NCBI GenBank assembly: GCA_008632985.1
Contig: QPGO01000171.1
Coordinates: 124,001 to 160,155, forward strand
DNA from: Psammoneis japonica
Lineage: Eukaryota
DNA length: 36,155 nucleotides
Reading direction: 5' to 3'
Part shown: piece after piece, positions 141 through 34,000 of the stretch
How positions within the stretch are numbered: position 1 is the stretch's first letter
How the letters are laid out: every line of letters starts with the position of its first letter
Program-made: the position numbers and the translations under genes
Notes under the pieces: model-generated
What the model was told of the DNA's origin: nothing
What the model saw: the letters and a program-made list of their open reading frames with translations, nothing else
Databases searched by the model: none

Positions 141-1544
141 TTGCATGCATGCAATGACCGCATGCTGGTGGCCTTGAACAGTCTCTCTTTGCTCAAGACA
201 ATGAAGCAGGGACTGCATGTTGATGCAGAACATTTGGCCAAGAATTGGTCTGTCAGTGTCAAGGACGCTGAGAACACTCTCAAAGTCACAATGCAGGGTG
301 GCATGCAAATGGTCCTCCATCCGATGCCATTGCGGAGGCTCCGGACCAATGACCGACAGCTGCGATGCAGGCGTGTTGCAAAGGAGATGTGCTCCGATGC
401 CTCAATCTCCTTGACCAAGTCAAGAAGGGGCAACACCTGTGCTCAGATCTTTGGCATGTCCAGTGGTTGGGCACGGGCTTGTCCCCTCAGATCTAAAGGA
501 CTGGCAGATGAAGCACTGTCCTTGCTCTTTGGGCAAGATGGCATGCCCCACACGACGATTGCAGATGGGGCAAAGGAGCAGGCACTGGGTCAGTTCAGCA
601 AGAAATCCAGGGAGGCTGACTGCCATGTCAAGCAGCCTGAACCCTGTGCTCCATGGTCCAACTTCATTGAGGGAACTGTTCATGAACTCAAGTGGGGTGC
701 AGGATGCAAGATGATGAAGACTCAAGTCCCAAAATGCCTTTGGGATGATTGTCTTGAGCTTGAAGCTCTCATCCGATCCAACACCATCCATGACATTTGT
801 GAGTTAGAGGGAGAGGTCCCAGAAACCACTTGTCTGGACAGACAGCCAACATTTTGCACACATGTGAGTTCAGTTGGTGTGACTGGGTCATGTTCAGGGA
901 CACAGCAGTCTCCTCATTCCCTGAGGACAAGAAAGTCTTAGGGCATTGCCTTGGTCTGAACCATGACACTGGTCCGGCTGTGATGGCAAAGACACTGAAG
1001 AACAATGGACAGAAGTCATCCATCGTTCATCCCATTGACCCTTGAACCCTGAAGAACAGTGCCACGAGATTCACTTGGCATTGTGCAAGAAATTTGATGG
1101 GCCAATGGAGGCCAAGCTAGGTGACGACGGTTGAGGACATTAATGAACCTGGTGCTGTGACCCTCACTTTTGATCCATGTGAGGACAATGCCAACCAGGA
1201 GGCTCCTGCAAGTGTGCCTGACAAGGACGATGTTCTTGATGCTGCTTTTGATGTTTGTGTGAACTCAGAAGTGTTGCTGCCTCACGGGGACACCCAACAA
1301 ACTGGGACAGTCAAACAGTGCAAGCTTGATTCGGATGGAGCACCAATGGGCAGAGCCAATGCCAATCCCATCCTAGATGCTCGTGCACATGAGGTCAAAT
1401 TTCCTGATGACCAGGAAGCTGAGTTTGTGGCTGATGTCATGGATGAGAACATGTTTGCACAATGTGACAATGAGGGCAACCAGTGCTTGCTCCTGGATGC
1501 TGTTGTCAATCACAAGACCAATGGGCATGCAGTCCAGAAGGATG
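141..1544 (+). pseudogene. Copia integrase and downstream pol linker, frameshifted
   Basis: ORFs 141-941, 830-1045 and 1121-1544 continue one pol sequence across frameshifts. Confidence 0.85.
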
Positions 1545-2153
1545 CCCACCTGTTTTTTTTTTGCCAAACGTCCATCACACCATGGCGACTCTACGGTCAC
1601 CGTTTCCTCAACGGCATCACCTTCAAGAGCCACAACAATCAACAACATTTTGTATCTCATGAACTTGTGTGCGGTAGAATTGACACATGTGAGTGTAACG
1701 GGCTCATTGTTGACTTATGCGGTCAAAAAGCGACGGGCAAAAAATTGAACATTTCAGCTGTTTTGGCTACGATCAATCAATGGCAAGGCACAGCAAGGCA
1801 CACACATGTGAAATGAATTACGTGACATCGACACATGCCAGTGTTATGGTGAGTTTATGGCTGTTGATGGGGCACATTGCGTTTGCGGTCGCCATTGTCA
1901 TCGTGGTTCGACAAGTTGTGGAAAATTTGAAATCTAAAACATTTGTGCACACAGATGCATTGTCACTCACAGGATCTACATGTCATGTGTTGCTCGACAT
2001 GCAAAGTATTTACATTTTTCACTTGTCACAATTTTTAATGTATGAACAAGGCATTAGCATTGATTGCCCAATGTGACACATGTTAAAGTCCACACATTAA
2101 CATTGGGCTTGCTGCCAGCAAAAAAAGGACGTTTGGCAAAAAAAATGGGTGGG
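1545..2153. mobile_element. Non-autonomous TIR element (MITE copy A), older and rearranged
   Basis: Inverted ends CCCACCTG(T)nGCCAAACGTCC (1545-1573) and GGACGTTTGGC(A)nTGGGTGGG (2127-2153); 1578-2153 aligns with 5592-6170; no TSD. Confidence 0.85.
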
Positions 2154-2545
2154 TTGATCTGGTGCATGAACATGGCCTTCATTGCATGGTTTTCCAAGTG
2201 CCAAAGTGCAATTGAAACCTTGGTTTTTGGAGCCAAGTTCACAGCCATGAAGCAGGGCATGGAGTCACTGCAAAGCTTGCGACACAAACTGCGGATGATG
2301 GGCATGCCATTGACTGGTCCATCCTACATCCATGGGAACAACATGTCTGTCATCCACAATGCACAAAGTCCAGAATCCACTTTAAAGAAGAAGTCAAACT
2401 CCATTTGCTGCCATGCCGCATGAGAGTTGGTGGCAATGGGTGAGTCACTCACTGGACACATTCTTTCTCGCAACTGAGATCATGTGTGGTGGCATGAAGC
2501 AAGATGAACTTGTGGGAATGCTTCTCCACGAGACACATCTGTGAA
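2154..2545 (+). pseudogene. Copia RNase H domain remnant
   Basis: IAWFSKCQSAIETLVFGAKFTAMKQGMESLQSLRHKLRMMG...SICCHAA*ELVAMGESLTGH matches the Ty1/Copia RNase H C-terminus; premature TGA at 2421. Confidence 0.9.
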
Positions 2546-2685
2546 GACTGGTCGTCTGTCACATCCGGCTCCCTTTTGCCCATGGGGTTTGTTGCAGGTT
2601 GCCAGGGTTTCCTTGTCCTGCCAGAGTGACTGAATGCAGCTGGAGAGTAAATTGGGTCAAGGCGACTCATTGTCTGTTCATCGAC

Positions 2686-2867
2686 TTGAGGGGACTGAAG
2701 AATTTACTGTGTGACCAATTCAAATTAGTTCAGTGTGCTTTGTCATTGGAGATTGGGAGCAGAGTGGTTCCTCAGGTTAGATCTCACTTCTAGAAAAGCA
2801 GCATGATGTTACAAGCCTTTCTTTTAGTCCTGTCCCTGGTTCATGCAACTGCAGGGTAATTCATTCA
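2686..2867 (+). repeat. Polypurine tract (TTGAGGGGAC) and putative 3' LTR (2696 to 2843 or 2867)
   Basis: A purine tract directly precedes TGAAGAATT at 2696; TTCA ends at 2843 or AATTCATTCA at 2867 form inverted termini; LINE coding sequence starts just after. No second LTR in the window. Confidence 0.55.
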
Positions 2868-3915
2868 AATGTCAAGGGAAATTTCCCGGGAGCACTTCAG
2901 TTGCCCCTCGCATGCCACACTGTTCCACTGGTCTCATTGTCCAAGAGTCTTCGGCACATTCCAAGTTCAAGCCCATCCTCCGATGACAAGCTTCAAGCCC
3001 TGCCCTGGTTCAACATGTGAAAGAGAAGTGTGGCTGGACTGATGAGGTTTTCCAACTCATGGACTGGCCAGTCCACTCCAAACTCCTGTCTCGTAATGTC
3101 CACAGGAAAGTGAGCACTGTCAAGCTGGTTCAAGACTTGTTGCCTGCCAACAAGATTGTCCACAGGTGCAATCCCATCCAACCTGATTGCTGCATTCATT
3201 GTCAACATCCAATGGAGGACAGGGACCACATCCTGTGGTGTCCTCACAATGAGGCATGGCAACATGCTTTTCTTCAAGGATTGCACAAGAAATGTGATGA
3301 CATTGACACATCTCCTCCCATGCACAATTTCCTGTTGTCAGCCCTGGAAACATGGTTCAGTGAAGGCCTGCTTTACACAGATAAACTTCACCACAGCATT
3401 CTGGAGACATCTCACACCCAAGAGCAGATTGGATGGGGAGGCACCTTTTTGATGGTCATTTTTCCTTGCATTGGAACAAGGCGCACCTGGTTCACTTGAA
3501 GACAGTTGCTAATTTGGATTGTGACACTTCCAGAGTGGATTGGGCAGCTGCTGTTGGCAGCCACATGTGGAACCAATGGCGGGAATTATGGGACCAACAC
3601 AATGAGGATGCCATCCATGGCGACAACTCAGAGACCAGCAAATCAGTGCAGTGCAAGCACACCAAGGCAGTGGTCAAGGCCATGTGCTCTTATTCCAGTG
3701 ATCACTTGGCAAAGGATCAAGCAGAACTTTTCGATTCAGTTGATGAGCACCTTGTGCTCACTCCACCCACAGGCACCAAAACTGGTTGGTGATCATCAGA
3801 CCCATGTTCAAATCCAGCATCCGAAAGGTGAAATGGTTGGCTTTGCAAGGCACACACACTGTTGCCAGTTACTTTGGCATGGTGTCACCTGATGGTGATG
3901 CCATTTCAGGCTGAT
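2868..3915 (+). pseudogene. 3' fragment of LINE ORF2 (post-RNase H region with zinc knuckle), related to the LINE at 13770-23960
   Basis: STVKLVQDLLPANK..CIHCQHPMEDRDHILWC aligns with STVKFIHELLPTNK..CLMCKSPMEDCDHILCC of ORF 14326-14826; QEQIGW and W..W..LW..HN motifs. Confidence 0.85.
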
Positions 3916-3939
3916 TGCTGTGTGTCCCTGCCGCACATT

Positions 3940-6720
3940 AAGTGTGCTGGGTGTGTGGGTTAGCTTGTTGCTGGAGTTGTGGGGCAGGAACACAGCAGCA
4001 CCTTAAAAACAGATTTTGGGTTTTGTTTTTGTTGTCAATGTCCAGGTGGAAATCACATTGGTTGTGCTGTGTCTTGGGAGCTGGTCGTTCAGGCAGCTTG
4101 GGTTCATTGCTTGCCTCAGGTTTGGATCTGTCTGTGAAGATTGTGAATTGAAGGTCCTTGTCTCCTTCTGGCAGCTCGGCTGGAGAGAGGTCATCCTCAG
4201 TTGCTGCTGTGCCAGTGGTTGGATCAAAAATGAGAGAGTTAGCCAGCTTGTTGGCTGCAGCTGTGAAGTTAAGATGGTGTCTTTTGTCTGGGCAGTGGTG
4301 CTTCAAGAACAGCAGGAGGCTGGTGATTCTTCCTCTTGCTTCATCGGCAAGCTTGGGCAAAAGTTGAATTTGGCACACCCCTGCATCTTCTTGTCTTTGT
4401 TGATGGCTGGGAACAGCTTCTCTCTTGGGCACTTGTTGGACTGCATCTGCAATGTTGCCTCACGCAAAGATTTGCTGTTCGGCTGACTCTCTGATCTGCA
4501 GTCGAGTTCAGAGATCTGGTCTGTTGATTCCTGGCAGTCATCACTTCTCATTGTCCTGACAAAAGCATCTTGCCTGGCTTGCAGCATCCGGGCACCATGT
4601 TTAGACCTGTCCTTGAAGATGTTCCTGTGGTTGGGGATGAAACGGCAGTTCTGACCTGAGGGAAATCCACCTTTTGCTGTTGAGGAGTAAATGTGCTGTG
4701 GGGCCTTCCTGGCTTGATGTTCTTTTTTGGAATGAGCTTCAGCTTCAAAGGCACAGACCTTGTTTGTCTTTGTGTCCCACCTCTGCCCCAGTTCCCGCAT
4801 GTTAAAGTTCCTCCATCTAAAGCCTGCTTCCTGGCTCGTGTCTTCCTGGAAAGCAACCTTGAGGGCTTCACAGTTGTGGTCCTTGAAAGACCAGAGCAGC
4901 CAACCGAGCTTGGAGAGCTCCTGTGGGAGTGGCACCAAGTTAAGGTGTAACCAAGTCTTGCCATCCTGGAAGAAGCAGTTCATCTCCTCCACAATGATGT
5001 TGTGGGATTTGTTGCTTCTGAAAAAGATGTTGTAAAAGGCCTCTGCCTCTTTCTTGGTGACATGGCAATTTGTGAATGCATTCCCTCATCTGCACATCAT
5101 TCTGGGCAGCTCTCATTCTGGTTTTGCAAGAGTGGCTTTTTAGTTGAGCCCTCTCTCCATGGGCATGGAGCATGTGACGTGTCCACTTCCTGCAGAATTG
5201 AAAACATCTCGGTCAGTTAGGATGTCCCAACAACATTTTCTAACCTTGCTCTCCCTGTCCTTCTTGGTGGTGAACTCAATGATGCACGTGCACCTGCATT
5301 TGTGAGTCCTGGGTGCTGACTGCACCGCCAGTGTAAGTTGCTGAACCAGGCTCTGGGGTTGTGTTGGTCTTTTGGAGTGCTGGTCACTGGAGTTGCATGG
5401 GAGTCATTTCCGGATCTGAGTTATTTTTTTTTCTGCTAAATCACCTTTTTTTTTTTGCTGCCGGCCCCGCCACTAAAGAATGGTGGGCACATGATGCATG
5501 CAGCGGCAGCCACGCTAACTCGACAAGCACGACTCAATTCAGTACGAATTCGCCGTTTGTGCGCTGTAGACGGAAACCGCGGAAACCACCTCACCATGGT
5601 GACTCTACGGTCGCCGTTTTCTCAACGGTATTACCTTCAAGATCCACAACAAGCAACAATATATCGTATCTCGTGAACTTATGTACGGCATCATTGACAT
5701 ATGAGAGTGTAACGGGCTTGTTGTTGACTTATGCGGTCGAAAAGCGATGGGCAGAAAAGTGAACATTTCAGCTGTTTTCGCTACCAAGAATCAATTTCAA
5801 AGCACAGTAAGGCATATGCCTTTGAAATGAATTACGAGCTATCGATATATGGCAGTGTCATGGTGAGTTTATGGTTATTGATGGAGTATATTGCATTCGC
5901 GGTCGCCATTGTCGTTGCGTTTCGAAAGTCGTGGAAAATTTGAAATATCGAGCATACGTGTTTGAAGGTTTATAAATTTATATAGGATGTTCGTATTGTA
6001 TATTATGATGTATACAGAGTATTACATTTTTCTGTTATTACTAATGCATTGATTAAAATAATATATAAGTATTGATTGCTTAGTGTAAACTATATGGAGG
6101 TCCCAATATACACATTAGGCTTGCCGCCAGCATAAAAAAAAGAATGTTTAGCAAAAAAAAAATGGGTGGGTTTCCGGATGGGCCATCCTCCTCCTCTTAA
6201 GGGGTTTTGTTCTGGGCCAGGCCTCCACGTCCGGAGCAACGTCTTGGATGGTTGGATCAGCCATGACGAGTTTGAGAATGCCTGACTTGATCCCAGGGAG
6301 ATTTTCTGATGGAGTCGTGCCTGTTGGTGGCAGCTGATGGGGACAGTGTTCCTGCGTCTTCATCTTTGTTAGTTTGAGTTGATGAAGTCATCGTTTCATC
6401 CGCACTTGCATCATCAGCAGACTGTTTTGATTCTTTGACCCCAGCTGGTGTTCGGGCAACCACCCAATTGTCCACCAGCCCAATCACATGGGAGTTTGTT
6501 TTCAATTTCTTTGGTCCTCGTCTGTTTGGAAACCTTTTGGTCACCAACATTTCACGGTCCCTGACCATGGTGCTGCATGTTTTTCCATCCCGGTCATGGT
6601 TGGTCCTACAACACTGCTGGCATTGATTCCATGTGTCTGATTTGAGTGACTGTGACTTCCCTGTGCACCTCCGTGCAAGAGATGTGCCATGGCATGTTTC
6701 TCTGCAGTTTTTACCAGTGC
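3940..6720 (-). pseudogene. Probable ORF1 of a second diatom-type non-LTR retrotransposon, decayed and interrupted by MITE copy B
   Basis: ORFs 4303-4992 and 3938-4432 carry LGWLLWS, FRWRNF and YSSTAKGGFPSG..RF, resembling ORF1 of diatom LINEs (recalled, not searched). Confidence 0.5.
5416..6170. mobile_element. Mutator-like non-autonomous element (MITE copy B), 755 bp, recent insertion
   Basis: Perfect 9-bp TSD TTTCCGGAT (5407-5415, 6171-6179); imperfect ~50-bp A/T-tract TIRs (5416-5465 vs 6123-6170); keeps TpA and CpG unlike its flanks. Confidence 0.85.
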
Positions 6721-9999: not shown

Positions 10000-12900
10000 C
10001 CTTACAAGAGCCTTCCTTGACCGTCCCCAACAAGAAGTCCAGGACCGCATCACCCTCGAACCCGGCACATTCTCCAGCATCTGGCGACATGCTGTTATCC
10101 CGGGAGGCGCACCGCACTCTCACCACCAACCTTCCCACTTTGTCAGAAACTGTGGATCATACAAAATCCTCTTCTTCCCTAAAAGGTCCTCCCTCCAACC
10201 CACCCGCCTCCCGGCCTGTTGTTGCGGCAAATCACCCTGTTGTTGCGTCTCCTCCACTGGACCCCAACGACATGTCGTGGCTGGACAAGTCCACCCTTCG
10301 CCAGCACTTTGACCCATCCAAGTGCTGATCTGTTGCATCAGAGGAAGTTGCTGCCCATGTGTCACGCCTTCAAATTGTTGACAAGGCGACCAACACGGAG
10401 TGTGTGCTGCACCATTCCACCGCCAACTTTTACCTTGCAGACAACCTGAGGGAGAACTGGCACATTTTTCCAATGAAACCCCCACAAGCAATCCCACCAC
10501 CGCACATCTCATGTCAGAGCTGAGGGCCCTCCTCACCTGGATCACTGCTTGGACAAACTCTCCATTGCCCGACAAGCAAACTCTCTTTACAACGGGCACT
10601 TTGGTTGCCTTCGTGTGTGCACTCCTGCCCTTTTGCTTTTCATTTTGTTGAAGGGTGAGTCAGATCTAAAATGCAACAGATTGCTCGCAGTTGAGAAGGA
10701 AGACAGATGGAGGATCAAGTTTGGCTGTGCTGGGCGGTTGCATCATCCAAAGGAGCCAGGCTCTACAAAATCTGCCAAACCCAAGGCCACACATGGTCTT
10801 GATGTTTTTGATCCTGACGAAAACTTCAACGCAAAAGAGTCATTCAAAATCAAGGCCACAGTGGCAGACATTCTTGACTCGATTCAGCTTTGCAAAAACG
10901 AGGTCGAGCTTCAGAAGCTGAGCAATCCTCCACCATTCAACTGGTTGCTTTGCTGCGACAAAAGTGTTTGAAAGCATTTTGCGACAAAATGGGTTGTCTG
11001 TGTTTCCCACAGGAGGATGTCACCATGCAGGGATTGTGCACATCCGGTGGTCAACACTGTGATGGACACCGTGACGGAAAAAACTGCACGTGGCTTCGAC
11101 ACAAAAAAACAGCCGCCGGTTGTTTTTTTGTCATGGATGCCTCTGGCAACACATGGTCCTTCAAGGTGGTCACCACCAGCAGAAGTCCCATTGGTCAACA
11201 CTGCGACAACAAGTGCGACATGAAGCTGATGCTGACTCGGATGCACCACAACCAAACTCAGCCCAACTTTGTGCTTCAAGACATGGACCTCCAACATGAT
11301 GGTCCCACCCATCCTGACTTTGTGCTAACCGCCCGTACATTCAAAAATCTCTCACTGGATGACAGCAGGCCATGGGACAATGTTGTCATTGGCGGAGGTG
11401 GAGACACGGGAATTCCCAAGGTGCACATGGATCGGCTGAAGTTCCCTGCATTCCCTGTGAGAGACTTCCACCCATCTGCCCCAGCCACAGTTCTGTGCCA
11501 TTTCAAGAACATTGTGTGCAGATCTGGGCCAGATCTGAAATGAGTCACAAGACTGGCTGTCCTTGCCAGTTGTCCAATGGGACATCACCGATTCCACTGT
11601 GTTGGGGACAAGCACCTGCCCGACCCATGTTGCCAAGGCATGGACCCATTTTTACAATTTGCCAATTCCTTGATGAATGAGTTTGGCATTTTGTTCAGCA
11701 ACCCACAGGTGGGCAGGATCAGCCCTGCCAATTTGACCCACAAGAAGTTCACTGAGGTTTTTATTGACAACAGGTGCATGAGCACCACTGGTGACCTGGT
11801 CAACCTGATCATCAACAAAATCTTTGCAGTGCCACTTTGGATCAATGACCACGTGATCACCGATGAGTTCTGTCCCAATTTAATGGAACAACACTGCAAG
11901 GCTGCCTGCAATGTTTGGGCACACCGGCAAGCATTTTTTTCAGCAAGATTTGTCTCATGTTGGTGCTGCATTGTCATGCGCCATCCGGTGTTGCAGTGAA
12001 GGACCACCTGTGTTTGAACAACATGGTGCATCCTGTCTTCAATTCTGGAGCTGCCACTCAACTGGCCCACATCAACCCAGAAGAACAACCGCTCATGCAC
12101 CAACGGATGTCATCGGAGACCGGGACCGAAAAGCATGGTTGGAATGGAACAGAGCACAAACTTTGTGAGAATGCCAACAATCACTGCACCTGCATGTTCA
12201 ATCACATGTTCCATGGTCCATGTTCTGGACAAGACCTGCTCACATTTTCTCCCTCAGGTCATCATCTGCGCAAGCCCTGTGGATTAGAAGAGTGTCAAAC
12301 AGTGGAGTGTGTTGACTCAGACCCAAACCTGTACAAGCAAAAAGTTGCAATGGTTCACGATGGAATTGTGGCTGACAACGAACTAGACTCCTTGTCTGGA
12401 GCATCCAACAGTGATGATTCCTTGTCACGTGATGGACTTGCGGCCAACAATGAATTAAACTCATTGTTGGGAGCATCCAACGTGGACAAATCCTTGACAC
12501 ATGATGGACTTGTGGCAGACAATGAACTAAGCTCCTTGCCAGAAGAATCCTCCCTCAACAAAGAAAGTGAGGGAGCAGAGACCGCAAGTCACCAATCGTT
12601 GCATGATGGATTGGCCTTTGACACAGGGGTTGATGGATGCAACGAATCAGATCACTGCATGCCCATCGTCACTCTGGATGATGAGGAGGTGTCTGTTGAT
12701 GCAACCGACGTGCAAAGGCACCTGACCTTTCACAAAATCCCAATCTGGACATGAATGAATGCATGGGTGCAACTTCAGTGTGAGTCTCACATTGGTGCAT
12801 TGTCCCATTCTATTTTCTTATTGTTCTCTTTGACTTGTGTGTCGACTGTGGTTGTGGCTCATGTGAGACTCTTGTTTCAATTTTTTAACACTCCCCAGTC

Positions 12901-22149: not shown

Positions 22150-23833
22150 AAGACAACTTGGTCAGCCCCACCAAAAATGCGAGTCTTCAAGGGAAGTGTC
22201 TGTTGAGGAATTGTCCGGGGGCTCCTCAGACGAAGCTCCAGCAGGGGCACTGGCTGTTGGTTTCTTGCACACAGGAGATGAGCAGGCATCCGATTCTGGT
22301 TCTGGGAGGGGCAGCCAAGCCTGAATGAAGGTCTGCAGTTCCGTGACAAGGTTGTTGATTTGAAGCTGATGCTTTTTTGTAAGGTCCTGTTGGAGAGCAG
22401 CCACAGATTGCTGATGTTGCTCTTCAATCTTTGTCAGCCTAGCTTCATTTTCTTGTCTCATACGTGCAATTTTTTGTTTTAAATCATCCATGTCACACGC
22501 ATGATCTGTGAGGTCGGAGGCAGCAGCAGCAGGCGAAGGTTCAGAAGGGGATGAGTTGAGGACTTCAGCAAACGTTTTGAAAGGAGGAACTCCAATGTCA
22601 GTGGGAACCGGAGGAGCGGGAGGAGCCGTGCTTGTTGCTGCGGGTTTGGGTGGAGCATCTGCACTGTCTTGGGATGTGTCAGAAATGTCAAGTGAGTTCC
22701 AGCTCTTAACACTGGCTGAAAATCGTCAGAAATGCCTGGAATCATGGGAACCAGATGGCCTGGGGTTGGCAGAGCATCGGCGGGAGATCATTCAACACAC
22801 TCTGAAGATTCTGTGAGACACATGCACAGACAGACTTGTGATGTTTCTTGGACACCAAAACATTAAACCTGGAAAAGGCAGTCTTCCTCTTTGATGGAAC
22901 AACGTCTGTGACACCTTCAAGAATGATGAAACGGGGACGAAGGAAGAAGTTGAGATTGGCGGCATAATGCAGAAGAGGAACCACACAAGTCATTGCCTGA
23001 AGCTTCTGTTGGTGTTGAACAGCCTTCTTGTACACTTTGATCTTGTTTTGTGAGCAACGCCAACGGGACAGGATTGAGAATCTGGGACAAGTTTTCAGGA
23101 TTTCCAGCAACACCTGAACAACATCTTTTGCCTTTTCATGCGGAGTTTTGATTGAACAGAATTTAGCACGGACAGACTTGTCAGTCAGAGAGGTGATCTT
23201 TTGAGGGACGAGCCAAGTGGGCAGTTTTGCTCTGTGACCCTTGGGTGCAACTGCTTGAATGCTCTTGACAACGACGTTGGTTGTGCAGCATTTTGGGAGA
23301 AATTCAGAGACTTGATCTGCGTGAACAAGATTCACGACCGTTTCGTCCCATTTGTGGTGATGCATGTAGATGGAGTTAGTTTGGAGGGTTTTAGTCACAA
23401 AGGGAATGTCTCGGATGTCCGGAAGAGTCAGGGACGCATGGATGCGATGAACAATCACATGCGTTGGCTTACAATGACGAGAACCGCTGATGCAATGAAT
23501 CACGAAATGTTGAGAGTGAGCAAGGCCAGTGGTCCATTCAACCACATTGATTTCCACAATCAGCTTTCCATGATTGGAGAAAATGGACATCTTGTTTGCA
23601 AGAGGGTCCTGAGTTGCTTTCTGTTGTAAGGTTTGTAACACCTGCATGTGGCCCATGGCCAGCACAGTGGATGCGTTGGCATCGTCAGAGGTGTGTTCGA
23701 AATGGAGGGTGATCTCTGTAGTTCCATCACTGTTTGAAGCACGGTTGCTGGCACGGGCAGGAGTAGAAGGCACATCTTTGTTGTCTTTGGGTGGATCAGG
23801 GGGATCTTTGACAGTGGGGTTAGCCTGCGGCAT
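22150..23833 (-). pseudogene. LINE ORF1
   Basis: ATG at 23833 (MPQANPTVKDPPDPP); ORF 22742-23971 followed by coiled-coil-like ORF 22162-22491, directly upstream of APE. Confidence 0.7.
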
Positions 23834-24182: not shown

Positions 24183-24823
24183 CGAGTGTCTTATCAACAT
24201 GTCAAGTGTCACAAAGAAAGAGGTGTCGAAGTGTCTCAAGCACACACAGAGGAAGAAGTTTTTGGGGGGTCAAACTGCATCTCACACCAATGTGTCCAGA
24301 GATGTCATCAGATTTCCTCTAAATCACAAATTAGAAGGCGTTGGATTTTAAACAGTGACATTTGTGGACATGCAGGTGTGAGATGCAGTTTGACCATCAC
24401 AATTGACATCTGCTCTCGATGATCTTTTGATGGGTGTGTCATTTGTTGGTCTGACAAAGACATGTCATCTTCATCCAGCTCCTCTAAGTTGTGCTTCGTG
24501 TTGAGTCCCGGGAAAATCTGTTCAAGAATTTCTGTGGGATTCACCATGCCATGAACGGAAATTTCGCCACTGGTTTTGGTCGCACATGAGTGCGGTGATT
24601 TTGCATTTTTTCTACACAACCTCTGGTGTCTAATTTTGCGCAGCCCTGCGTGAATCCTTTGCACAGCATGCAAGTCTTTGGATGACACCTTAAATTGGGT
24701 GAGTGATCCTTGTCCTGGTTTTGTCATGGATTTCTGAAATTGTGCATGTCCGGAAAATGTGATGCTCCAACACACTGTCAAATTTTACATTGCTGTTTTC
24801 ATTTGCTGGTGTCAAAACTGCCC

Positions 24824-25212: not shown

Positions 25213-25288
25213 GAATTCCAGCCCTGGGTGTGGGAGCTTGCAGCACTGACATGTGACATGATTGGTTTTCATCATCCGTCGCATGTTT
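25213..25288 (+). mobile_element. Isolated left end related to the 32623-33022 TIR element
   Basis: TTCCAGCCCTGGGTG..GTGACAT..CGTCGCATGT vs TTCCAGCTCTAGGTG..GTGACAT..CGTCGTATGT (32631-32700). Confidence 0.55.
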
Positions 25289-25506
25289 CACTCTTCGACC
25301 CTTGGGTGCAACTGCTTGAATGCTCTTGACAACGACTTCGGTTGTGTAGCATTTTGGGAGCAATTCAGAGACTTGAGCTGTGTGAACAAGATCCATGACC
25401 GTTTCATCCCATTTGTGGTGACGCATGTAGATGGAGTTAGTTTGGAGGGTTTTAGTCATGAAGGGAATGTCTCGGATGTCCAAAAGAGTCAGGGACGTGT
25501 GGATGC
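25286..25506. repeat. ~220-bp direct copy of LINE ORF1 segment 23225-23445
   Basis: Colinear match GACCCTTGGGTGCAACTGCTTGAATGCTCTTGACAACGAC...GGATGC; both encode LQTNSIYM.HHKWDETV. Confidence 0.95.
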
Positions 25507-25849
25507 AAATCAATCGCTGGCACGCTGTTTTTCACGCAAAAACATGACATTTCATGTGATGTCTCGTAGAATCAGTGCCAGCATCGTCACAGCCAGGAAT
25601 GTCATGTGTGACACACATCACGCTGCCAGAAGTGCTTGCACGGACAACCACCAGCTGGTGCTTCCTCCGGCAAGCAACAATTGTCCACGAGGAAACACCA
25701 TGTCATTCTTTTTGGGCCGCACAATGCAGTGCTGCTTCTACATGTTTTTTGGATGTGCGGTGGGAACGCGCACCATCACAGCATTTGCACAAATCGCACC
25801 ACCATTCAACTTCTACGTGCGGTGGCATTAGTGTCGAATCACACAACCA

Positions 25850-27725: not shown

Positions 27726-30700
27726 CAGCTGCACATCATTGCAACAATGCCGCCTCTCAGCAAAGCACTGAGCACTCTGCTTAAGGCGAAGAAAGCCTGC
27801 AATGGCAGCCCCCAGTTCGACGGAACTGAAGAACAGTGCTTTGGAGCATCACCTCAAGACAACAAATTGTGCAGTGCAGGAGAACATGACCAGTCAAGCG
27901 ATTGTGAAGTTACACAAGTCACACCCCAAAGCAGCGGACGACATTGCGAACCCAATCAAGTGCAAGGTTGCACCTGACCCAGAAGAACCGGAAGACACGG
28001 TGGCATTCTATGTCCATCAGTGTGATGCCTCCAACAAGGAAAAGCACCTGGTGTTCTTAAAGAACTTTCATGAGTTAAGAGAGCTCAAGCACTGGACTGC
28101 CAGACCAGCCCTCCATTGCCAGATGCTGTGCCGGACCAAAGGCTCCACAAAGGACTGACATCAAAGAGCTGTCAGAGCTCTAGTTGAAGACCCACAAGAT
28201 CTTACCCCAGAACAATTTGATGCAGCAGCAGAGACCGTCACTGCTGGATTGCTTCCGCAAAACTCAGCGGCGGCACAGAAACAGTGCTTGCGCTCCACAC
28301 GCAAGCCAAGAGAGTCTGCCTTCATTGATTTCACCTCCAGAGTTTTGGAAATCAATGAGCTGGGTGCCCTGCATGAGAGGCTCTGCAGAAGAGAGAGCCC
28401 CTCTCACCAACCAAGAGTTGACTCATGCAGCAGAGCAAGCTGTGCCGGATGATTGGCACAAGAAATTCCAACTGTCCACTGGACACAGAGGTGAGCATGG
28501 CATGGCAGACTTGGAGACATGCTGTTCCACCATTGAATCCTTCCTGCAGAAGAAGAAGGCCCACAAGAGAGAAGGTTGTCAAGTGACCAACGGTGATTCC
28601 AGAGACGTGCCCCCACTCATGGCTGCCGAACCGCATTCAGACATGGAGGCGACCGAGCGATGTGACCGAGCAACAACAATAATGACAACGCCGGAGCTCC
28701 TCCCAACCAACCACATCGACATCCTGCTCGACACCAAGCCAACTCACAGCGTGATGGGAACCGTCCTCAAGGCTGTGGTCAACAGAGAGGATGTGCCCAA
28801 ATGAACCGGCAAGAAACACATGCCGTGAACGAGCCAGAAGAAGCTCTGCCAGTCCAGAACCCGGACAATGGTGCAGACACAGCCCCAGCGGAACAACTGG
28901 AACAACTTGGCATAAGAGATGATGCTGAACCTGAACCTTACAAACAAGAAGACGGACTTGAGACACAGGAAGACGATGCAAGCTGTTCTTGTGAAGAATC
29001 AGATGGAGAACATGACACTTACGTGGAAGAGAACCATTGCATTCTGTTGCCAGAAAACTTTGAGCTGCAACAGAGACAGAGACCTCCTGTGGACCCAGCA
29101 GAAACATCTGACGAATCCAGCCTGCCGGAACTCGTGCCACACGGCAGATCAACATCGACAGACAGCGATGATTTGTGGAGCACCGACAGCAGCATGTCAG
29201 CAGTGTCGTGGACAACCTCACACATGTCGTCTGTGGACGAGCTGTCATCTTTTGGAGAAGATGCCGATGATGAGTGCGATCCTGTAGACAGCGCAGACGA
29301 GCGCGCATCTCTGACATCATCAATTTTTGAACATGACAGCACGGACGCCCAGAAGTTGATGGAGGCATTGTGTCCAGATGGAACGGACAATTGTGACTAC
29401 ACAGTGTTCCCTCATGGAGGCACACATCCTACGAGAAGGGGCTCATGTGTTCCAGGTCACCCAGATGAATTCGAAGAAGATGAAGGACATTCAAAAACAT
29501 CCAAAGACACCGAACCCCACATGTGTGAGCAATGTCACTCACTTTCTCATCGAGCAACTGCATCTAAGACGAAGCAAGCTGTGTCGGCAGATGAACTTGT
29601 GAACAGCGAGTCTGACAGGAAAATGTCAGTGGCTCCAGAATCTGACACCGATGAAGAGAGCATCCACATGACACATGAACTTGTGCGAGCCGTGGCGCCT
29701 GAGCCACAACCATCAGCACAAATGCCTGAACCAGATCCTCACAGTGATGGTGACGAGCATTTGAGTGCATTTGGTGATCACGATTTTTTTACTGTGAACC
29801 TGGCACAGTGCACCCAGATGATGAAGAGCATTGCACTTGGTTCCACCAAGAGGAAGAAGTCCTTGGAGATGGCATGTCAGACCATGTCAGAGAACAAGAA
29901 GAAGAGCAAAGTGGCAACAAGAAGCTGAAAAGACATGCAGCACAAAAGCCCAAAAATGCAAGTGGAAGAACCCCGGATGTGTGGTGCGACTTCAACTGCT
30001 CGATCCAGTTGATGGGACTTGAGACAAAAGTGACAATTTTTCACTTGCCTCACTCGACAGCGGCAGCAGTCGAACAATGACAAAGAGAGATGTGCTCTCA
30101 AAAGGGACACTGGATGAGGCCACCTTAGTGCCAACAAAGTGGGAGACTTTGTTTGTGCAGACCCATCAGACAACTCATGTGGCACTCACTCGTCATCAAT
30201 TCCTTGATGCATCCTTGCACAGACAATTCGATTTGTGCTTTTACATTTCACCCTTACAAGGAATCTACGATGCTGCAATGGGACGAGATGTCCTGTTCAA
30301 GCTTGGGATGAAGCTTGATTTCCAAGAAAAAGTCATAACTTGGGATGACTTGTCCTTTCCGATGAGATGTCCTGAGGATTTTTGGCACCAACCGATGATG
30401 CAAGAAGAGCTCATGGTGGCTCGTAAGGCCAAAGCCATTTGCCCAAGTGACTGCAGTCCTGTGGAGGACTTAAGAGAGTGTGTGCCCGACCACTTGTCAA
30501 GAGAGCAAGGTGAAGCTCTCATTGCCTTGCCAGAAGACTTCTCCAGTCTCACGCAAGGAGAGCTCGGACAATGCATCAAGCGACCACCAGTCAATGTTGA
30601 GCTTAAGCCCAGCACCAAGCCCATCATGTGCCAACCTTACAGCATGCCCCAGATCAACTGCAACATGGCAAAAGGAGAAGCAGAGAGATTGTGCCGAGTG

Positions 30701-31619
30701 GGAGTTCTGAGAAGGATCTCAGACTCAGCTTGGGGATTTCACTCAATGTTCACACCAAAGAAAGGTGGTGATTGCCAATTTGTCACCGACTTTCGGCTGT
30801 TAAATCGATGCATGCAACGACGCCCGTGGCCTCTACCTTTGATGCCAACCATGCTGCGAAAGCCACACGGCTGTGCTTGTGTCACCGCGATCGATTTGAA
30901 CATGGGATTTTTCTCGATGCGGATCAGACAGAAGTGTCAGCAGCATCTGACTGCTGTGCTGCCGTTTGGCAAATGTGCTTACTGCAGATTACCAATGGGA
31001 CTTGCACCAGCCCCAGACACATTCCAAGAAGTCATGACTGACCTGTTAGGACACTTGGAATTCGCACTGATTTTCATTGACGACCCATTGATTGTTGGCA
31101 AGGGATCCTTTGATGATCACCTTGCCCAATTGCGTGAAGTATTTGTGCTTTTGAATGATGCAGGCTTTAGAATAAATTTGCGAAAAACTTTCTTTTGCAC
31201 TCTAGAAATGGAGTGCCTAGGGTTTGTTGTTGCTGGAGACGGAATCAAACCGCAACCGAAAAAAGTCAATGCGATTGTGAATTTGGTTTCGCCCAAAACA
31301 AAGAAAGAACTCAGAGGTTTTGTCGGAATGATAAACTTCTGTTGCGAAATGTGGCACCTTTGTTCCCATCCATTGGCACCTCTTTCGAGCATGACCTCGA
31401 AAGCAGTCAAGTTTGAGTGGAAACCCGAACACGAGCAAGCGTTTCAAGAAACCAAGAGACGGATCTCTGCCAAGATGCTTCTTGCCTGCCCTGATTTCAA
31501 TGAGATGTTCTACATCTACACCGATGCTTCGAAATGCCAGCTAGGCAGCGTTGTCATTCAAGGCAAGCGCCCGATGGCATTCTACTCCCGCAAACTCTCC
31601 GACACGCAAAAAAGACATC
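27726..31619 (+). mobile_element. Degenerate Ty3/Gypsy retrotransposon (gag, acidic spacer, protease, RT, start of RNase H), truncated by a Copia insertion
   Basis: Gag AQKQCLRSTRKP..F.SRVLEIN, EL..A..AVPDDW; protease LDSGSS at 30053-30070; RT FVTDFRLLN, AIDLNMGF, RLPMGL, FIDD, FVGMINF; RNase H YTDAS..LG, AFYSRKL. PR-RT-RH order. Confidence 0.93.
30044..31619 (+). pseudogene. Gypsy pol (protease-RT-partial RNase H); frame open but conserved residues substituted
   Basis: ORF 30077-31651 plus in-frame upstream DSG; the last codons run into the Copia LTR. Confidence 0.92.
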
Positions 31620-31789
31620 TGTCGCGGTCAGCCGTCCGACGTACAGACTGACAGACTGTACCTCGTAGAGAACAGCTCGTGCTGACTCAGTGGGATGATG
31701 TTGAAGATACCTCTGAAGTGACTGACGTGGATAGATCATAGACCGTAGAAGTGGCAAGCCTCTAAAGCTCACAACATCTTCACAAGACA
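31620..31789 (+). repeat. 5' LTR, 170 bp (TGTC...GACA)
   Basis: Starts exactly where Gypsy RNase H homology stops; 4-bp inverted termini; followed by a PBS-like motif and gag ATG. Confidence 0.7.
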
Positions 31790-31801
31790 GGTTGTGAAGC
31801 C
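31790..31801 (+). promoter_or_regulatory. Putative primer-binding site GGTTGTGAAGCC
   Basis: Directly after the LTR CA; resembles the GGTTATG-type half-tRNA-Met PBS of Copia elements with TA changed to TG. Confidence 0.45.
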
Positions 31802-31846
31802 TTTCGTTACCTCAGCAATTTTTGCAACAACACTCACTGCTCACCA

Positions 31847-34000
31847 TGGCCCCATCCAAGTCCAACAAGGCTGACACGCCCAAAAAGGACAAGAACTCTT
31901 CTGAACCGAAGAAGAAGTGCAATGTCGCGACGCCCTCACCAACTGGTGGCAAGGAATCGACAAGCGAAGAGCGCACACCCCGCAAATGCGGTGGGAAAAC
32001 CGAAAAGGCGATCGGCAAAACAGCCGACGACACGACGACGAAGTCACGTGATGATGTCAATCCACCAAACCTGGATGCCAAATGTGCCAATGACGCGCGT
32101 AAAACCGATGACGTCGACTCTATTGAGTCAGACAAAGACATGTCCAAAATGGACATTTCTGATGATGAAAGTGTCTCGTCCAAAACATCCGACGCGGGAA
32201 CTCCACGCAAAACTCGCACCAGGAAGCACCCATCTGAGCGCGCACGTGACCGCCTCACCGCGAAGATAAATGAACAGGCTGCTGGTGCATACGCTGACAA
32301 GCATGTCCAGACGCTAGCTGAACCGCTAGAGGACAAACTCACTGAAGACCCAGAGTCATTCTTTGACTTTTTGTTTTGTCTCGAGGAACGTCTTGAGACA
32401 TGTCCAGCATGGGACAAAATCAAACTCGTGGGTGACACTAAAATGTCTTTAACTAAAGACTTTCCCCAACTGTCCCTTGTGGACTTCGAGTCCTTTGCCC
32501 TAGAGCGCTGGGTCCTTGAAGAACCAGACAAAGTCCGTGAGCTCTGCAACGACCAGACATCCAAGCACTTCGCTCAACGCGCGTTAAAGCAACTGCTTGT
32601 CGCGTCATTCGACAAAGAGCTATGGATGCGTTCCAGCTCTAGGTGGAACCTCGTACTGCTGCACTGTGACATCAACAGTTTTTTGGATCGCGTCGTATGT
32701 CGCGCACACACATTTCTACGTGTTACATTCTACGAAATTGTTTCATGCTCCCTGTTTTGCAAAGCCAAAGGCTTTCTATTTTTTCAACAGTTATGAGAAT
32801 GAAAATGTGCTGGGCACACTCTTTAATGTCTGTAGAACATGCCCGGGCAAACTGTTGTTGATGTGCTCCAAGTGTGAAGGAGGAAATACGTTCGTAAAAT
32901 TGCCTCTTTTTCTGTTGGCGATCATTCGTATTTTCATTACAGCATAAATTTACTACGGAGCTCGCACGTAGAATTCTACGGGCCCAATGTCACACGGAGT
33001 CCCACCCAGGACTGGAACCCATCTACGTCAGGACATTGCCCCGGACATGAACAAAGCATGCCATCGCGATGGCTCCACGTGCTTCTTCTTGGCTTGCCAG
33101 AAGCTCTTTCCATCGCCTCAGATGCACATCAACAACATCCAGTCCCAGATGTTGAAGATCTCTCTGGTCAATGACTGCGACAGCAACGTTGACAAGCACA
33201 TGAGCAAGTTCCGCCAGCACTTGTGCTTGCACACTCAGTGCGACAGCATGCTCGAGTGTGCCCTCGTAGAAAAGGCATTTGAAGAATTCAAGACTGCCCC
33301 TTGCAAACCCTTCGCGGACGAGATGGCCAAGAATGAGACAGAATGGATGCACAAGACACAGGTCACGTGGACAATCAAGACCCTGTTCAATGAGGCGATC
33401 AGCCTCAAGAACGCTTGTGTGGCCCAGCAGATCTGGGATGAGCCCTCGGACAACGACACTCAACTCATGGCCCCAATCACCGGTCAGAAAGAGACAGTCG
33501 GATTCGCGCAGCAAATGACCAAGGTCGCGACCGCCTTACAGAGCACCCTGCACCAGCAGACACGATTCGAACGTCACGGCCATTATAACAGGCACGGCAA
33601 TCCAGGTCGCGGTGGTCGTGGTGGACATCATGGGCGCGATCGCCCTGGTGCACCTAGTCGTGGATCCCCGCCGTTCTTGCATCTCGAACCCGAGAACAAG
33701 TCTCAGGAAAAACAATGGGGTGACAAGACCTGGCATTGGTGTGATGCTTGTAAAATGTGTTCTACACGCCACAGCACCGACACCCATGATGAGTGCATTG
33801 CTGCAAACAGCAACAAGAGCGGCAAGCGCACATCCAACCAGAGCGGCGGCGTGCAGAAAAAGAGCGCCTACGACCACAAGTGCCAAAAGGTTCAGTCTAA
33901 GATTCAGGCTGACATTGATAAGTTGCAGAAACTCACTGCCAACTTTTCTTTCTCCAAATCTGTTGCTGCTCTTGAGCAACAGAGGGGAGACGGCAATTAG
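31847..34000 (+). pseudogene. Copia gag interrupted by a 400-bp insertion
   Basis: Removing 32623-33025 joins ORFs 31822 and 32987 in frame (SFDKELRQDIAPDM). Confidence 0.85.
32623..33022. mobile_element. 400-bp non-autonomous TIR element
   Basis: CTA direct repeats at 32620-32622 and 33023-33025; imperfect TIRs ATGCGTTCCAGCTCTAGGTGGAAC..GTGACAT vs reverse complement ATGGGTTCCAGTCCTGGGTGGGAC..GTGACAT. Confidence 0.8.

Follow-up and report, generated by a model that had tools for sequence, protein, structure and literature searches.

Two diverged copies of a non-coding DNA transposon, A and B, lie in a 36-kb stretch of repeat-rich DNA (the window) and differ asymmetrically at TpA. Where B has TA, A has CA or TG at 33 sites, and the opposite is found at 3 (P = 2×10−7, binomial test), mostly in one direction, as a sequence-only reading of this DNA had claimed. 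These differences are probably best explained by a TpA-directed A:T-to-G:C process that nearly spared copy B, most simply as a late arrival.

An abundant MITE-like family

Copies A and B (Table 1) are diverged members of an abundant, MITE-like family of non-coding TIR DNA transposons. Both are short and non-coding, belong to a family of many copies and carry inverted repeats (19 nt at 100% in A and 41 nt at 80% in B). They share with MITEs the terminal and subterminal inverted repeats, the 9-bp TSD around B, a length of 609-755 bp, the lack of a protein family match and the many copies, but differ in that no autonomous partner was found for the A/B family and that the outer 5' 8 bases of copy B do not mirror its 3' end. 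When the termini of A and B are compared, CCCACC starts three of the four element ends, the outermost 5' 8 bases of copy B differ from the other three termini, and one position of the terminal repeat reads TA, TG, CA and CA across the four ends. Three frames of ≥120 aa overlap the copies, and none has a Pfam match. No Rfam family or tRNA gene was found in the elements, and the two sub-threshold Rfam hits both lie outside them; a SINE or RNA-gene origin was therefore dropped.

The 3' ends given in the sequence-only reading were kept, but its starts were too late, A beginning at 1545 and B at 5416. The TSD of copy B is intact, as that reading had held: TTTCCGGAT at 5407-5415 and 6171-6179 matches at 9 of 9 positions and includes an unmutated CpG. 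No TSD was found around copy A. Neither additional copies nor fragments of the element were found elsewhere in the 36-kb window, a TA-free 19-mer of the element hit metagenome contigs at 13 loci, all of them chance matches of 19-27 nt, and a two-motif pattern search of genome contigs gave 0 matches. At a likeness of at least 80%, 180 contig pieces of run X1 align to the element, and the high-copy repeat corresponds to the 5' two thirds of copy B, with as many as 30 contigs at a single place. The segment of B without counterpart in A is covered by other family contigs (summed depth 963-1390 in bins 5446-5527), which makes copy A a deletion derivative.

Table 1. Positions of the two copies, their parts and the coding fragments used to polarise mutation
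Feature	Position	Strand	Description
Copy A	1545..2153	.	Non-autonomous TIR element, 609 bp, without TSD
Copy A 5' inverted repeat	1555..1573	.	19 nt, 100% complementary to 2127-2145
Copy A 3' inverted repeat	2127..2145	.	
Copy B	5416..6170	.	755 bp
Copy B TSD, left copy	5407..5415	.	9 bp
Copy B TSD, right copy	6171..6179	.	9 bp
Copy B 5' inverted repeat	5425..5465	.	41 nt, 80% complementary to 6123-6162
Copy B 3' inverted repeat	6123..6162	.	
Copy B segment without counterpart in copy A	5446..5585	.	~140 bp, covered by other family contigs
TpA-dense internal part of copy B	5938..6110	.	Copy A 69% identical, with CA/TG versus TA in B
Copia-type pol fragment left of A	192..1537	+	Homolog residues ~237-684
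Copia-type pol fragment right of A	2151..2462	+	Homolog residues ~1207-1310
Gypsy-type RT/RNase H frame	30023..31648	+	Second test of mutation direction

Asymmetry and direction of the TpA differences

The local alignment of A (1572-2155) with B (5586-6172) comprises 448 matches, 125 mismatches and 25 gap columns (78% identity overall, 83% over the first 370 columns and 69% over the remainder), and all eight example strings quoted in the sequence-only reading are present in it. Copy A has 18 TpA and copy B has 55. The 54 scored TpA of B are read in A as CA (20), TG (13), TA (10) or as another state or a gap (11), whereas in the reverse view 3 of the 18 TpA of A are CA in B. With B as reference, A/T-to-G/C transitions occur at 34 of 104 TpA positions versus 17 of 253 other A/T positions (P = 1.7×10−9, Fisher's exact test); with A as reference there is no enrichment (4 of 36 TpA positions versus 23 of 294 others, P = 0.52). 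Both strands are affected in copy A (20 CA versus 13 TG, P = 0.30 for equality), and among the 33 converted sites the changed and unchanged strands show no difference in flanking-base preference. CpG co-varies with TpA, CG in B facing TG or CA in A at 11 sites and the opposite being found at 5, so that if B had gained TA it would also have had to gain CpG out of TpG/CpA, by the reverse chemistry. Single steps between TA or CG and CA or TG make up 52 of the 125 mismatches; the other 73, of which 26 are transitions and 47 are transversions, could stem from ordinary divergence of old lineages. In view of these 73 mismatches, the gap columns and the ~140-bp 5' segment absent from A, the earlier description of the pair as a direct before/after view is only partly right.

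Of the two copies, A is the abnormal one. Its o/e ratios (TpA 0.36, CpG 0.72, CpA 1.97 and TpG 1.63) resemble the composition of the window (TpA 0.20, CpA 1.59, TpG 1.63 and CpG 0.48; TpA 0.05-0.57 in 1-kb bins), and copy B has an ordinary dinucleotide content (TpA 0.89, CpG 1.29, CpA 1.21 and TpG 1.14). It is extremely improbable that B descends from an A-like ancestor and became TA-rich through RIP-like C-to-T changes at CpA/TpG. As described in the available part of the source (PMC2621366), ascomycete RIP likewise riddles repeats with dinucleotide-specific transitions, wrecks transposon genes and leaves family members mutated to differing degrees, but it turns CpA into TpA with an AT-rich product, whereas here TpA goes to CpA/TpG; premeiotic duplication sensing also belongs to RIP, and the system here is known from sequence alone. 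Copy B fails both RIP indices, and the RIP signature was found in neither B, A nor the window: TpA/ApT is 0.80, 0.37 and 0.22, respectively, against a threshold of ≥0.89, and (CpA+TpG)/(ApC+GpT) is 1.25, 1.49 and 1.68 against ≤1.03 (thresholds from the same part of PMC2621366). Moreover, the CpA and TpG o/e of B are 1.14-1.21, and B is richer in CpG than A and the family majority. A RIP-like origin would agree with the CA/TG found in the majority consensus at the listed sites (see below) and with the DNMT4 encoded by many diatoms, which, according to the accessible text of PMC9998398, may be related to fungal RID; yet the three-state sites described below still demand TA-to-CA/TG steps, and TA is lost across the whole window, conserved Tyr codons included.

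In the coding DNA around A, the direction is TpA loss. About 520 codons are absent between the two Copia fragments precisely at the location of copy A; TpA o/e is 0.08 in 545-1544, left of A, and CpG o/e in the flanks of A is 0.19-0.24. For the Copia host, a Tyr column was taken as conserved when Tyr occurs in at least 75% of 12 Copia homologs. Nine conserved Tyr columns of the Copia host read Cys (6), His (3) and Tyr (0) in the window, and the conserved His is retained in 4 of 5 columns and the conserved Cys in 4 of 4. The 15 Tyr columns of the Gypsy frame read Cys (6), His (1), Phe (5), Tyr (2) and Ile (1), giving 12 Tyr-to-Cys versus 4 Tyr-to-His in the two + strand frames combined. The changes in A probably ran from TA to CA/TG, as in its coding surroundings. 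For the minus-strand frame at 4306-5085, to the left of B, no homologs were detectable, so the flanks of B are not polarisable by protein comparison. The members of a repeat pair at 23224-23456 and 25285-25515 differ mostly at CpG, and their TpA are too few to inform. CpG decay is the deamination of 5-methylcytosine in silenced transposons, with CpA and TpG as products; it is seen alongside in the same DNA here with the same products, but it cannot yield TA-to-CA/TG.

ADAR-like RNA editing of A after U, fixed by reverse transcription while A was carried inside its Copia host, is very unlikely to have made these changes. It would suit the nesting of copy A in a retrotransposon, the excess of Tyr-to-Cys over Tyr-to-His, which is a possible sense-strand bias, and the preference of ADAR for U before the edited A, as given in the available portion of bioRxiv 10.64898/2026.01.13.699255. 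However, both strands are affected in A as well as in the coding frames, where Tyr became His 4 times, the family is a DNA transposon most of whose other copies are converted too (at the best 40 of 219 places), and the depletion runs on both strands over the whole 36 kb and stops at the ends of B. The ADAR signature, with changes on the transcribed strand only and in retroelements only, was not found.

Other copies of the family

The states of the family were read from contig pieces aligned to B at ≥80% likeness, at the best 40 of 219 variant places by support; because these were picked by support, sites where most copies match B are not among them. At all 10 A/B-discordant TpA sites listed among these 40 places, most other copies have CA or TG, one alternative state, carried by 6-21 different contigs, accounting for 62-85% of the summed contig depth, and the majority shares the state of A at 7 and has the opposite state at 3. 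A CA/TG consensus or fixed subfamily differences, which the sequence-only reading had named as evidence against itself, are thus formally found at these 10 sites, and the A/B difference is partly lineage history rather than in-place mutation of A. Within the well-covered 5586-5937, B has 22 TpA, and at 13 of them a simple majority consensus reads CA or TG.

Three sites have three states. B reads TA at 5680/81, 5840/41 and 5887/88, where A reads TG, CA and CA, respectively, and 6, 11 and 13 other contigs read CA, TG and TG, opposite to A; whatever the rooting, each of these sites then needs one or more TA-to-CA/TG steps. At 5731, 5783 and 5871, TA is retained in both A and B, and TG is found in 18, 14 and 20 contigs. 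The seven listed sites at which A agrees with the majority in having CA/TG against the TA of B lie on the branch of B and, the family being unrooted, are readable in either direction. We argue that the CA/TG majority in this unrooted family goes back to common descent from a lineage that had already been converted, and not to a gain of TA in B. The earlier claim that TA was lost from A and not gained by B is, for an unrooted family, supported by the three-state sites, the composition and the CpG co-variation. In bins 5979-6101, the contig of the locus itself was the only one aligned to B at ≥80% likeness, and no inference is drawn from these bins because converted copies would fall short of 80% likeness in this part and some contigs may go undetected.

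It is possible, if rather doubtful, that although the changes ran from TA to CA/TG, most conversions of A were already in its source copy, which came from a converted and still-transposing lineage; the pair would then say little on mutation at the present site of A. The agreement of A with the majority at 7 of the 10 listed sites is what such inheritance predicts, but it also fits independent 50:50 outcomes. One and the same tetranucleotide, TTAT, is read mostly as CA at 5680 but mostly as TG at 5730; the outcome is thus not set by local context, and common descent is the simpler reading. The 19-nt inverted repeats of A are fully complementary, as expected if A was still mobile in this form. 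On the other hand, A is opposite to the majority at 3 of the 10 sites and keeps TA at three majority-TG sites, which indicates that the fully converted majority form is not its ancestor, and the DNA around A is itself heavily converted. Some of the changes in A probably arose in place and were not inherited.

Probable late insertion of copy B and the proposed process

Copy B is TpA-rich inside depleted flanks, as had been noted: its TpA o/e of 0.89 compares with 0.18 in each 1-kb flank, and the depletion, which affects both strands along all 36 kb, ends at its boundaries, TpA density changing at the element ends. The composition steps at these ends and the intact TSD support the earlier view that B came to its present site after the flanks had mutated. 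Copy B itself carries some changes: it deviates from most other copies at 8 further listed sites (7 transversions and 1 transition), has TG at position 5600 where A and 17 contigs have CG, and has the deviant 5' 8 bases. A contig joining 5296 to 6241 across an unknown interval was rejected as a clean empty site, being a diverged copy of the flanking repeat.

That B has been at its site as long as the flanks and was protected rather than young, not having been targeted, is unlikely. Its differences from most copies at the 8 sites imply that its lineage is not new, and in Bigelowiella natans the process is regional and active in only some lines, according to the available text (bioRxiv 10.64898/2026.01.13.699255); both would fit protection. 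Against this stand the composition step at the element ends beside an intact 9-bp TSD with an unmutated CpG, and the fact that the 5' two thirds of B is a high-copy repeat, a type of DNA mutated elsewhere throughout the window.

Under the late-arrival explanation that we favour, a TpA-directed A:T-to-G:C transition, giving TpG where the A of the + strand changed and CpA where the A of the other strand changed, would have acted on nearly all of the repeat-rich window, alongside CpG-to-TpG/CpA decay. Copy A and the lineage ancestral to most family copies would have been exposed to it, and copy B would almost have escaped, most simply because its insertion at 5416 came after the flank mutation. 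By analogy, the chemistry may be adenine deamination, and the favoured candidate would be an ADAT2/TadA-like enzyme acting on adenine after T in the DNA of silenced repeats, as proposed for B. natans.

Of the 231 mutations that mutation-accumulation lines of B. natans showed in two viral regions, 230 were A-to-G/T-to-C, all at TpA, the targets being integrated giant-virus and virophage DNA, and clusters were delimited by Rho TpA ≤0.43 and CpA+TpG ≥1.52 (available part of Mettrop et al., bioRxiv 10.64898/2026.01.13.699255). The traits shared with the present DNA are A-to-G/T-to-C changes at TpA on both strands, with a TpG or CpA product by strand, a regional action directed at foreign or repeat DNA, a direction of TpA loss (read here in the coding DNA around A), and blocks of long-term low TpA with high CpA+TpG (0.20 and about 1.6 in the window). 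The systems differ in host (a rhizarian there; here a stramenopile, probably a diatom), in targets (here retrotransposons and a DNA-transposon family), in the far deeper depletion here (0.20 versus 0.45 in its viral region, as given in the same part of the preprint), in the parallel CpG loss here and in the manner of observation, the process having been seen in real time there and being read from sequence here. Almost no other change accompanies the process there; here, between diverged copies, TA/CG-type steps are 52 of the 125 mismatches. The word "diatom" is absent from the accessible part of that preprint.

It is quite possible, though short of probable, that in this diatom-like alga a DNA-level defence deaminates TpA adenine in silenced repeats as the inverse counterpart of RIP, targets both DNA transposons and retroelements with TpA loss about as fast as CpG loss, is episodic so that late arrivals like B are untouched, and has failed to stop a converted MITE lineage from spreading. 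We found no report in the literature of TpA-directed A:T-to-G:C hypermutation in diatoms; the one description so far is a 2026 preprint, on a chlorarachniophyte. Its operation in diatoms would mean that the process is ancient or originated repeatedly among eukaryotes, and that much of a repeat-rich genome is shaped by it. TpA loss removes TAA and TAG stops and thereby creates many false open frames that would mislead gene finders. Non-coding DNA-transposon sequence is also affected, and three stages are seen in one system, with TpA o/e about 0.1 in the host element, 0.36 in A and 0.89 in B; once every copy is gathered, such staged copies and a non-coding target make the rules of timing and targeting testable.

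Composition of the window and its two transposon copies

The dinucleotide composition of the window is extreme (see the table), and observed/expected (o/e) TpA ranges from 0.05 to 0.57 over all of its 1-kb bins. Because TAA (364) and TAG (230) stop codons in the six frames are scarce relative to TGA (1720), the window holds 88 frames that run for 120 aa or more without a stop, and many false gene models are to be expected in TpA-poor DNA of this kind. Only five of these frames gave Pfam matches at E ≤ 0.001 (one Gypsy RT/RNase H, two Copia gag-pre-integrase and two with below-cutoff matches); the search matched nothing in the other 83. Among the relatives of the transposon proteins, the named ones come from diatoms (Cyclotella cryptica models and Thalassiosira sp.; ~40–50% identity), which agrees with a diatom source of the window but is no proof of it. 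Outside copy B, residual TpA is rarest by o/e, taken without an unmutated baseline, in ATAT (0.01), GTAT (0.04), ATAC (0.05), CTAT (0.05) and ATAG (0.06) and commonest in TTAA (0.42), TTAC (0.36) and TTAG (0.34); TA preceded by A or followed by T is nearly absent.

Copies A and B, two diverged members of one MITE-like DNA-transposon family, both reach further 5′ than the sequence-only reading had placed them. Three of their four ends start with CCCACC, continue with CA or TG and a T-run, and then show a GCYAAAC motif; the outer 8 bases of B's 5′ end deviate from this pattern. About 140 bp of B (5446–5585) are absent from A and present in other family copies. Searches of A and B against protein families, Rfam and tRNA genes matched nothing. 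In one DNA run, 180 contig pieces fall on 5200–6400 at ≥80% likeness, with at most 30 distinct contigs at one place; this run holds the locus itself and may be the assembly's source, and its contigs do not independently confirm the window sequence.

Of twelve full-length Copia-type homologs that align with the window, the two inspected (P0122 and P0124) match the first Copia fragment with residues ~237–684 and the second with residues ~1207–1310. Because residues ~684 to ~1207 are unmatched between the fragments, ~520 codons, the reverse-transcriptase part, are missing between 1537 and 2151, precisely at the site of A, probably through a deletion or through recombination between two insertions.

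Features of the window, with dinucleotide o/e ratios
Feature	Position (strand)	TpA	CpG	CpA	TpG	Remarks
Whole window	36,155 bases	0.20	0.48	1.59	1.63	
Copy A	1545–2153	0.36	0.72	1.97	1.63	No TSD; inverted repeats 19 nt, 100%
1-kb flanks of A		0.08 / 0.17	0.19 / 0.24	1.68 / 1.73	1.88 / 1.60	
Copy B	5416–6170	0.89	1.29	1.21	1.14	TSD a perfect 9-bp direct repeat (5407–5415, 6171–6179); inverted repeats 41 nt, 80%
1-kb flanks of B		0.18 / 0.18	0.21 / 0.34	1.52 / 1.92	1.54 / 1.45	
Copia pol fragments	192–1537, 2151–2462 (+)					
Gypsy frame	30023–31648 (+)					
Milder depletion	31001–33000	0.30–0.46	0.79–1.11			Frames without Pfam match; perhaps younger DNA, or DNA spared in part
Tandem pair	12359–12502					72-nt units, 75% identical
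Direct repeats	23224–23456, 25285–25515					~2 kb apart, 91% identical; mismatches mostly CG vs TG/CA
Inverted repeat	24268–24395					40-nt arms, 85% complementary; 48-nt spacer
Three-state site	5680/81					B TA; A TG; 6 other contigs CA
Three-state site	5840/41					B TA; A CA; 11 other contigs TG
Three-state site	5887/88					B TA; A CA; 13 other contigs TG

Direction of the change at TpA

The local alignment of A (1572–2155) with B (5586–6172) has 448 matches, 125 mismatches and 25 gap columns, and contains all eight example strings of the sequence-only reading. Of 54 scored TpA in B, A has CA at 20, TG at 13, TA at 10 and another state or a gap at 11, whereas the 18 TpA of A meet CA at 3, TA at 10 and other states at 5 in B. 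The TA/CA-TG difference is thus confirmed as mostly one-directional. With B as the reference, A/T to G/C changes are concentrated at TpA (34/104 versus 17/253 elsewhere; P = 1.7×10−9), and with A as the reference they are not (4/36 versus 23/294; P = 0.52). CG in B is opposed to TG or CA in A at 11 sites, and the reverse holds at 5.

The pair on its own gives no direction of change. Five lines of evidence, however, support loss of TA to CA or TG, the direction claimed from the sequence alone, and disfavour gain of TA in B in the manner of fungal repeat-induced point mutation (RIP). First, the RIP indices of B (0.80 and 1.25) both fail the thresholds of ≥0.89 and ≤1.03 (PMC2621366), and its CpA and TpG levels are ordinary; the compositionally abnormal copy is A, in the same manner as the entire window. 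Second, all nine columns of the Copia fragments with Tyr in ≥75% of the 12 homologs have lost it in the window, to Cys at 6 and to His at 3, with conserved His kept in 4/5 columns and conserved Cys in 4/4, and the 15 conserved Tyr columns of the Gypsy frame have Cys at 6, Phe at 5, Tyr at 2 and His and Ile at 1 each; TA loss is therefore shown for the DNA embedding A. Third, any rooting needs a step from TA to CA or TG at the three-state sites, because only TA is one step from both; one terminal-repeat position also reads TA, TG, CA and CA across the four element ends. Fourth, A and B share TA at 5731, 5783 and 5871, where 18, 14 and 20 contigs, respectively, have TG. Fifth, at 5665, 5779 and 5836 B has CpG where A and most contigs have TG or CA, so that TA gain in B by C-to-T would also need the opposite change for its CpG.

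Tyr-to-Cys changes outnumber Tyr-to-His (12 versus 4) in the + strand frames at 192–2462 and 30023–31648, small numbers that may reflect a sense-strand bias. An RNA-editing route would accommodate this excess and the nesting of A in a retroelement, but it is unlikely, as the changes fall on both strands and extend to a family of DNA transposons.

History of the two copies

TpA o/e falls into three grades, namely the host Copia (0.08–0.17), A and B, and both boundaries of the TpA-dense stretch are the termini of B, which indeed lies TpA-rich and with an intact TSD inside depleted flanks. Because the TSD contains an unmutated CpG, composition changes sharply at the ends and the 5′ two thirds are high-copy, the earlier proposal that B inserted after its flanks had mutated is supported; that B was instead protected from mutation, rather than young at its site, is less probable. 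The lineage of B is not young, because B differs from most copies at eight places, seven of them transversions, among the 40 best supported of 219 variant places across family contigs (the listed places below). Its survival at sites that escaped targeting, followed by a cut-and-paste move to 5416, is a possible course of events.

The direction of change and the late arrival of B are supported, but the reading of the pair as a "direct before/after" view is supported only in part. Of the 125 mismatches, 73 are unrelated to TA or CG (26 transitions and 47 transversions). At the listed places 5643, 5653, 5692, 5754, 5759, 5787, 5788 and 5820, A agrees with 10–30 other contigs and B stands alone. 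At all 10 listed A/B-discordant TpA sites a single converted state has most of the summed contig depth (62–85%), A having the same state at 7 and the opposite at 3. Between 5586 and 5937 B has 22 TpA, of which at least 13 have a majority alternative, the other 9 not being among the listed places. Majority outcomes are opposite at 5680 and 5730 in the same tetranucleotide, and local context therefore does not account for the copies agreeing with one another. Most simply, the greater part of the family was founded by one converted copy, and A would partly share that history and then have gained its own changes.

A CA/TG consensus, or subfamilies, had been named beforehand as counting against the before/after view; formally this is the state of the listed discordant sites, and we read it as not meaning TA gain in B, given the five lines of evidence for TA loss. 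Three lineages without an outgroup do not suffice to fix the root; the CpG sites place it along the branch leading to B, and changes lie to either side of it. B itself is not untouched: it has TG at 5600, where A and 17 contigs have CG, and TG at 5719/20, where A has CA, so that a TA ancestor is implied.

Relation to known hypermutation

A preprint on mutation-accumulation lines of Bigelowiella natans reports 231 mutations in two viral regions integrated in the genome; 230 were A-to-G or T-to-C changes, every one of them at TpA, and only some lines had them. As the responsible enzyme, its authors suggest an ADAT2-like DNA adenine deaminase (bioRxiv 10.64898/2026.01.13.699255). The signature of the window agrees with this directly observed TpA-restricted pattern, as the preprint describes it, but comes from another host lineage, has retrotransposons and a DNA-transposon family as targets, differs in the depth of TpA depletion and loses CpG in parallel. 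Compared with fungal RIP, as described in PMC2621366, the process is reversed in chemistry and in product. Our literature search for TpA-directed hypermutation in diatoms found no description; RID-related DNMT4 enzymes are reported from diatoms, their function given as unknown (PMC9998398). Together with its putative enzyme, the process in the window would belong with the recently described TpA-directed hypermutation.
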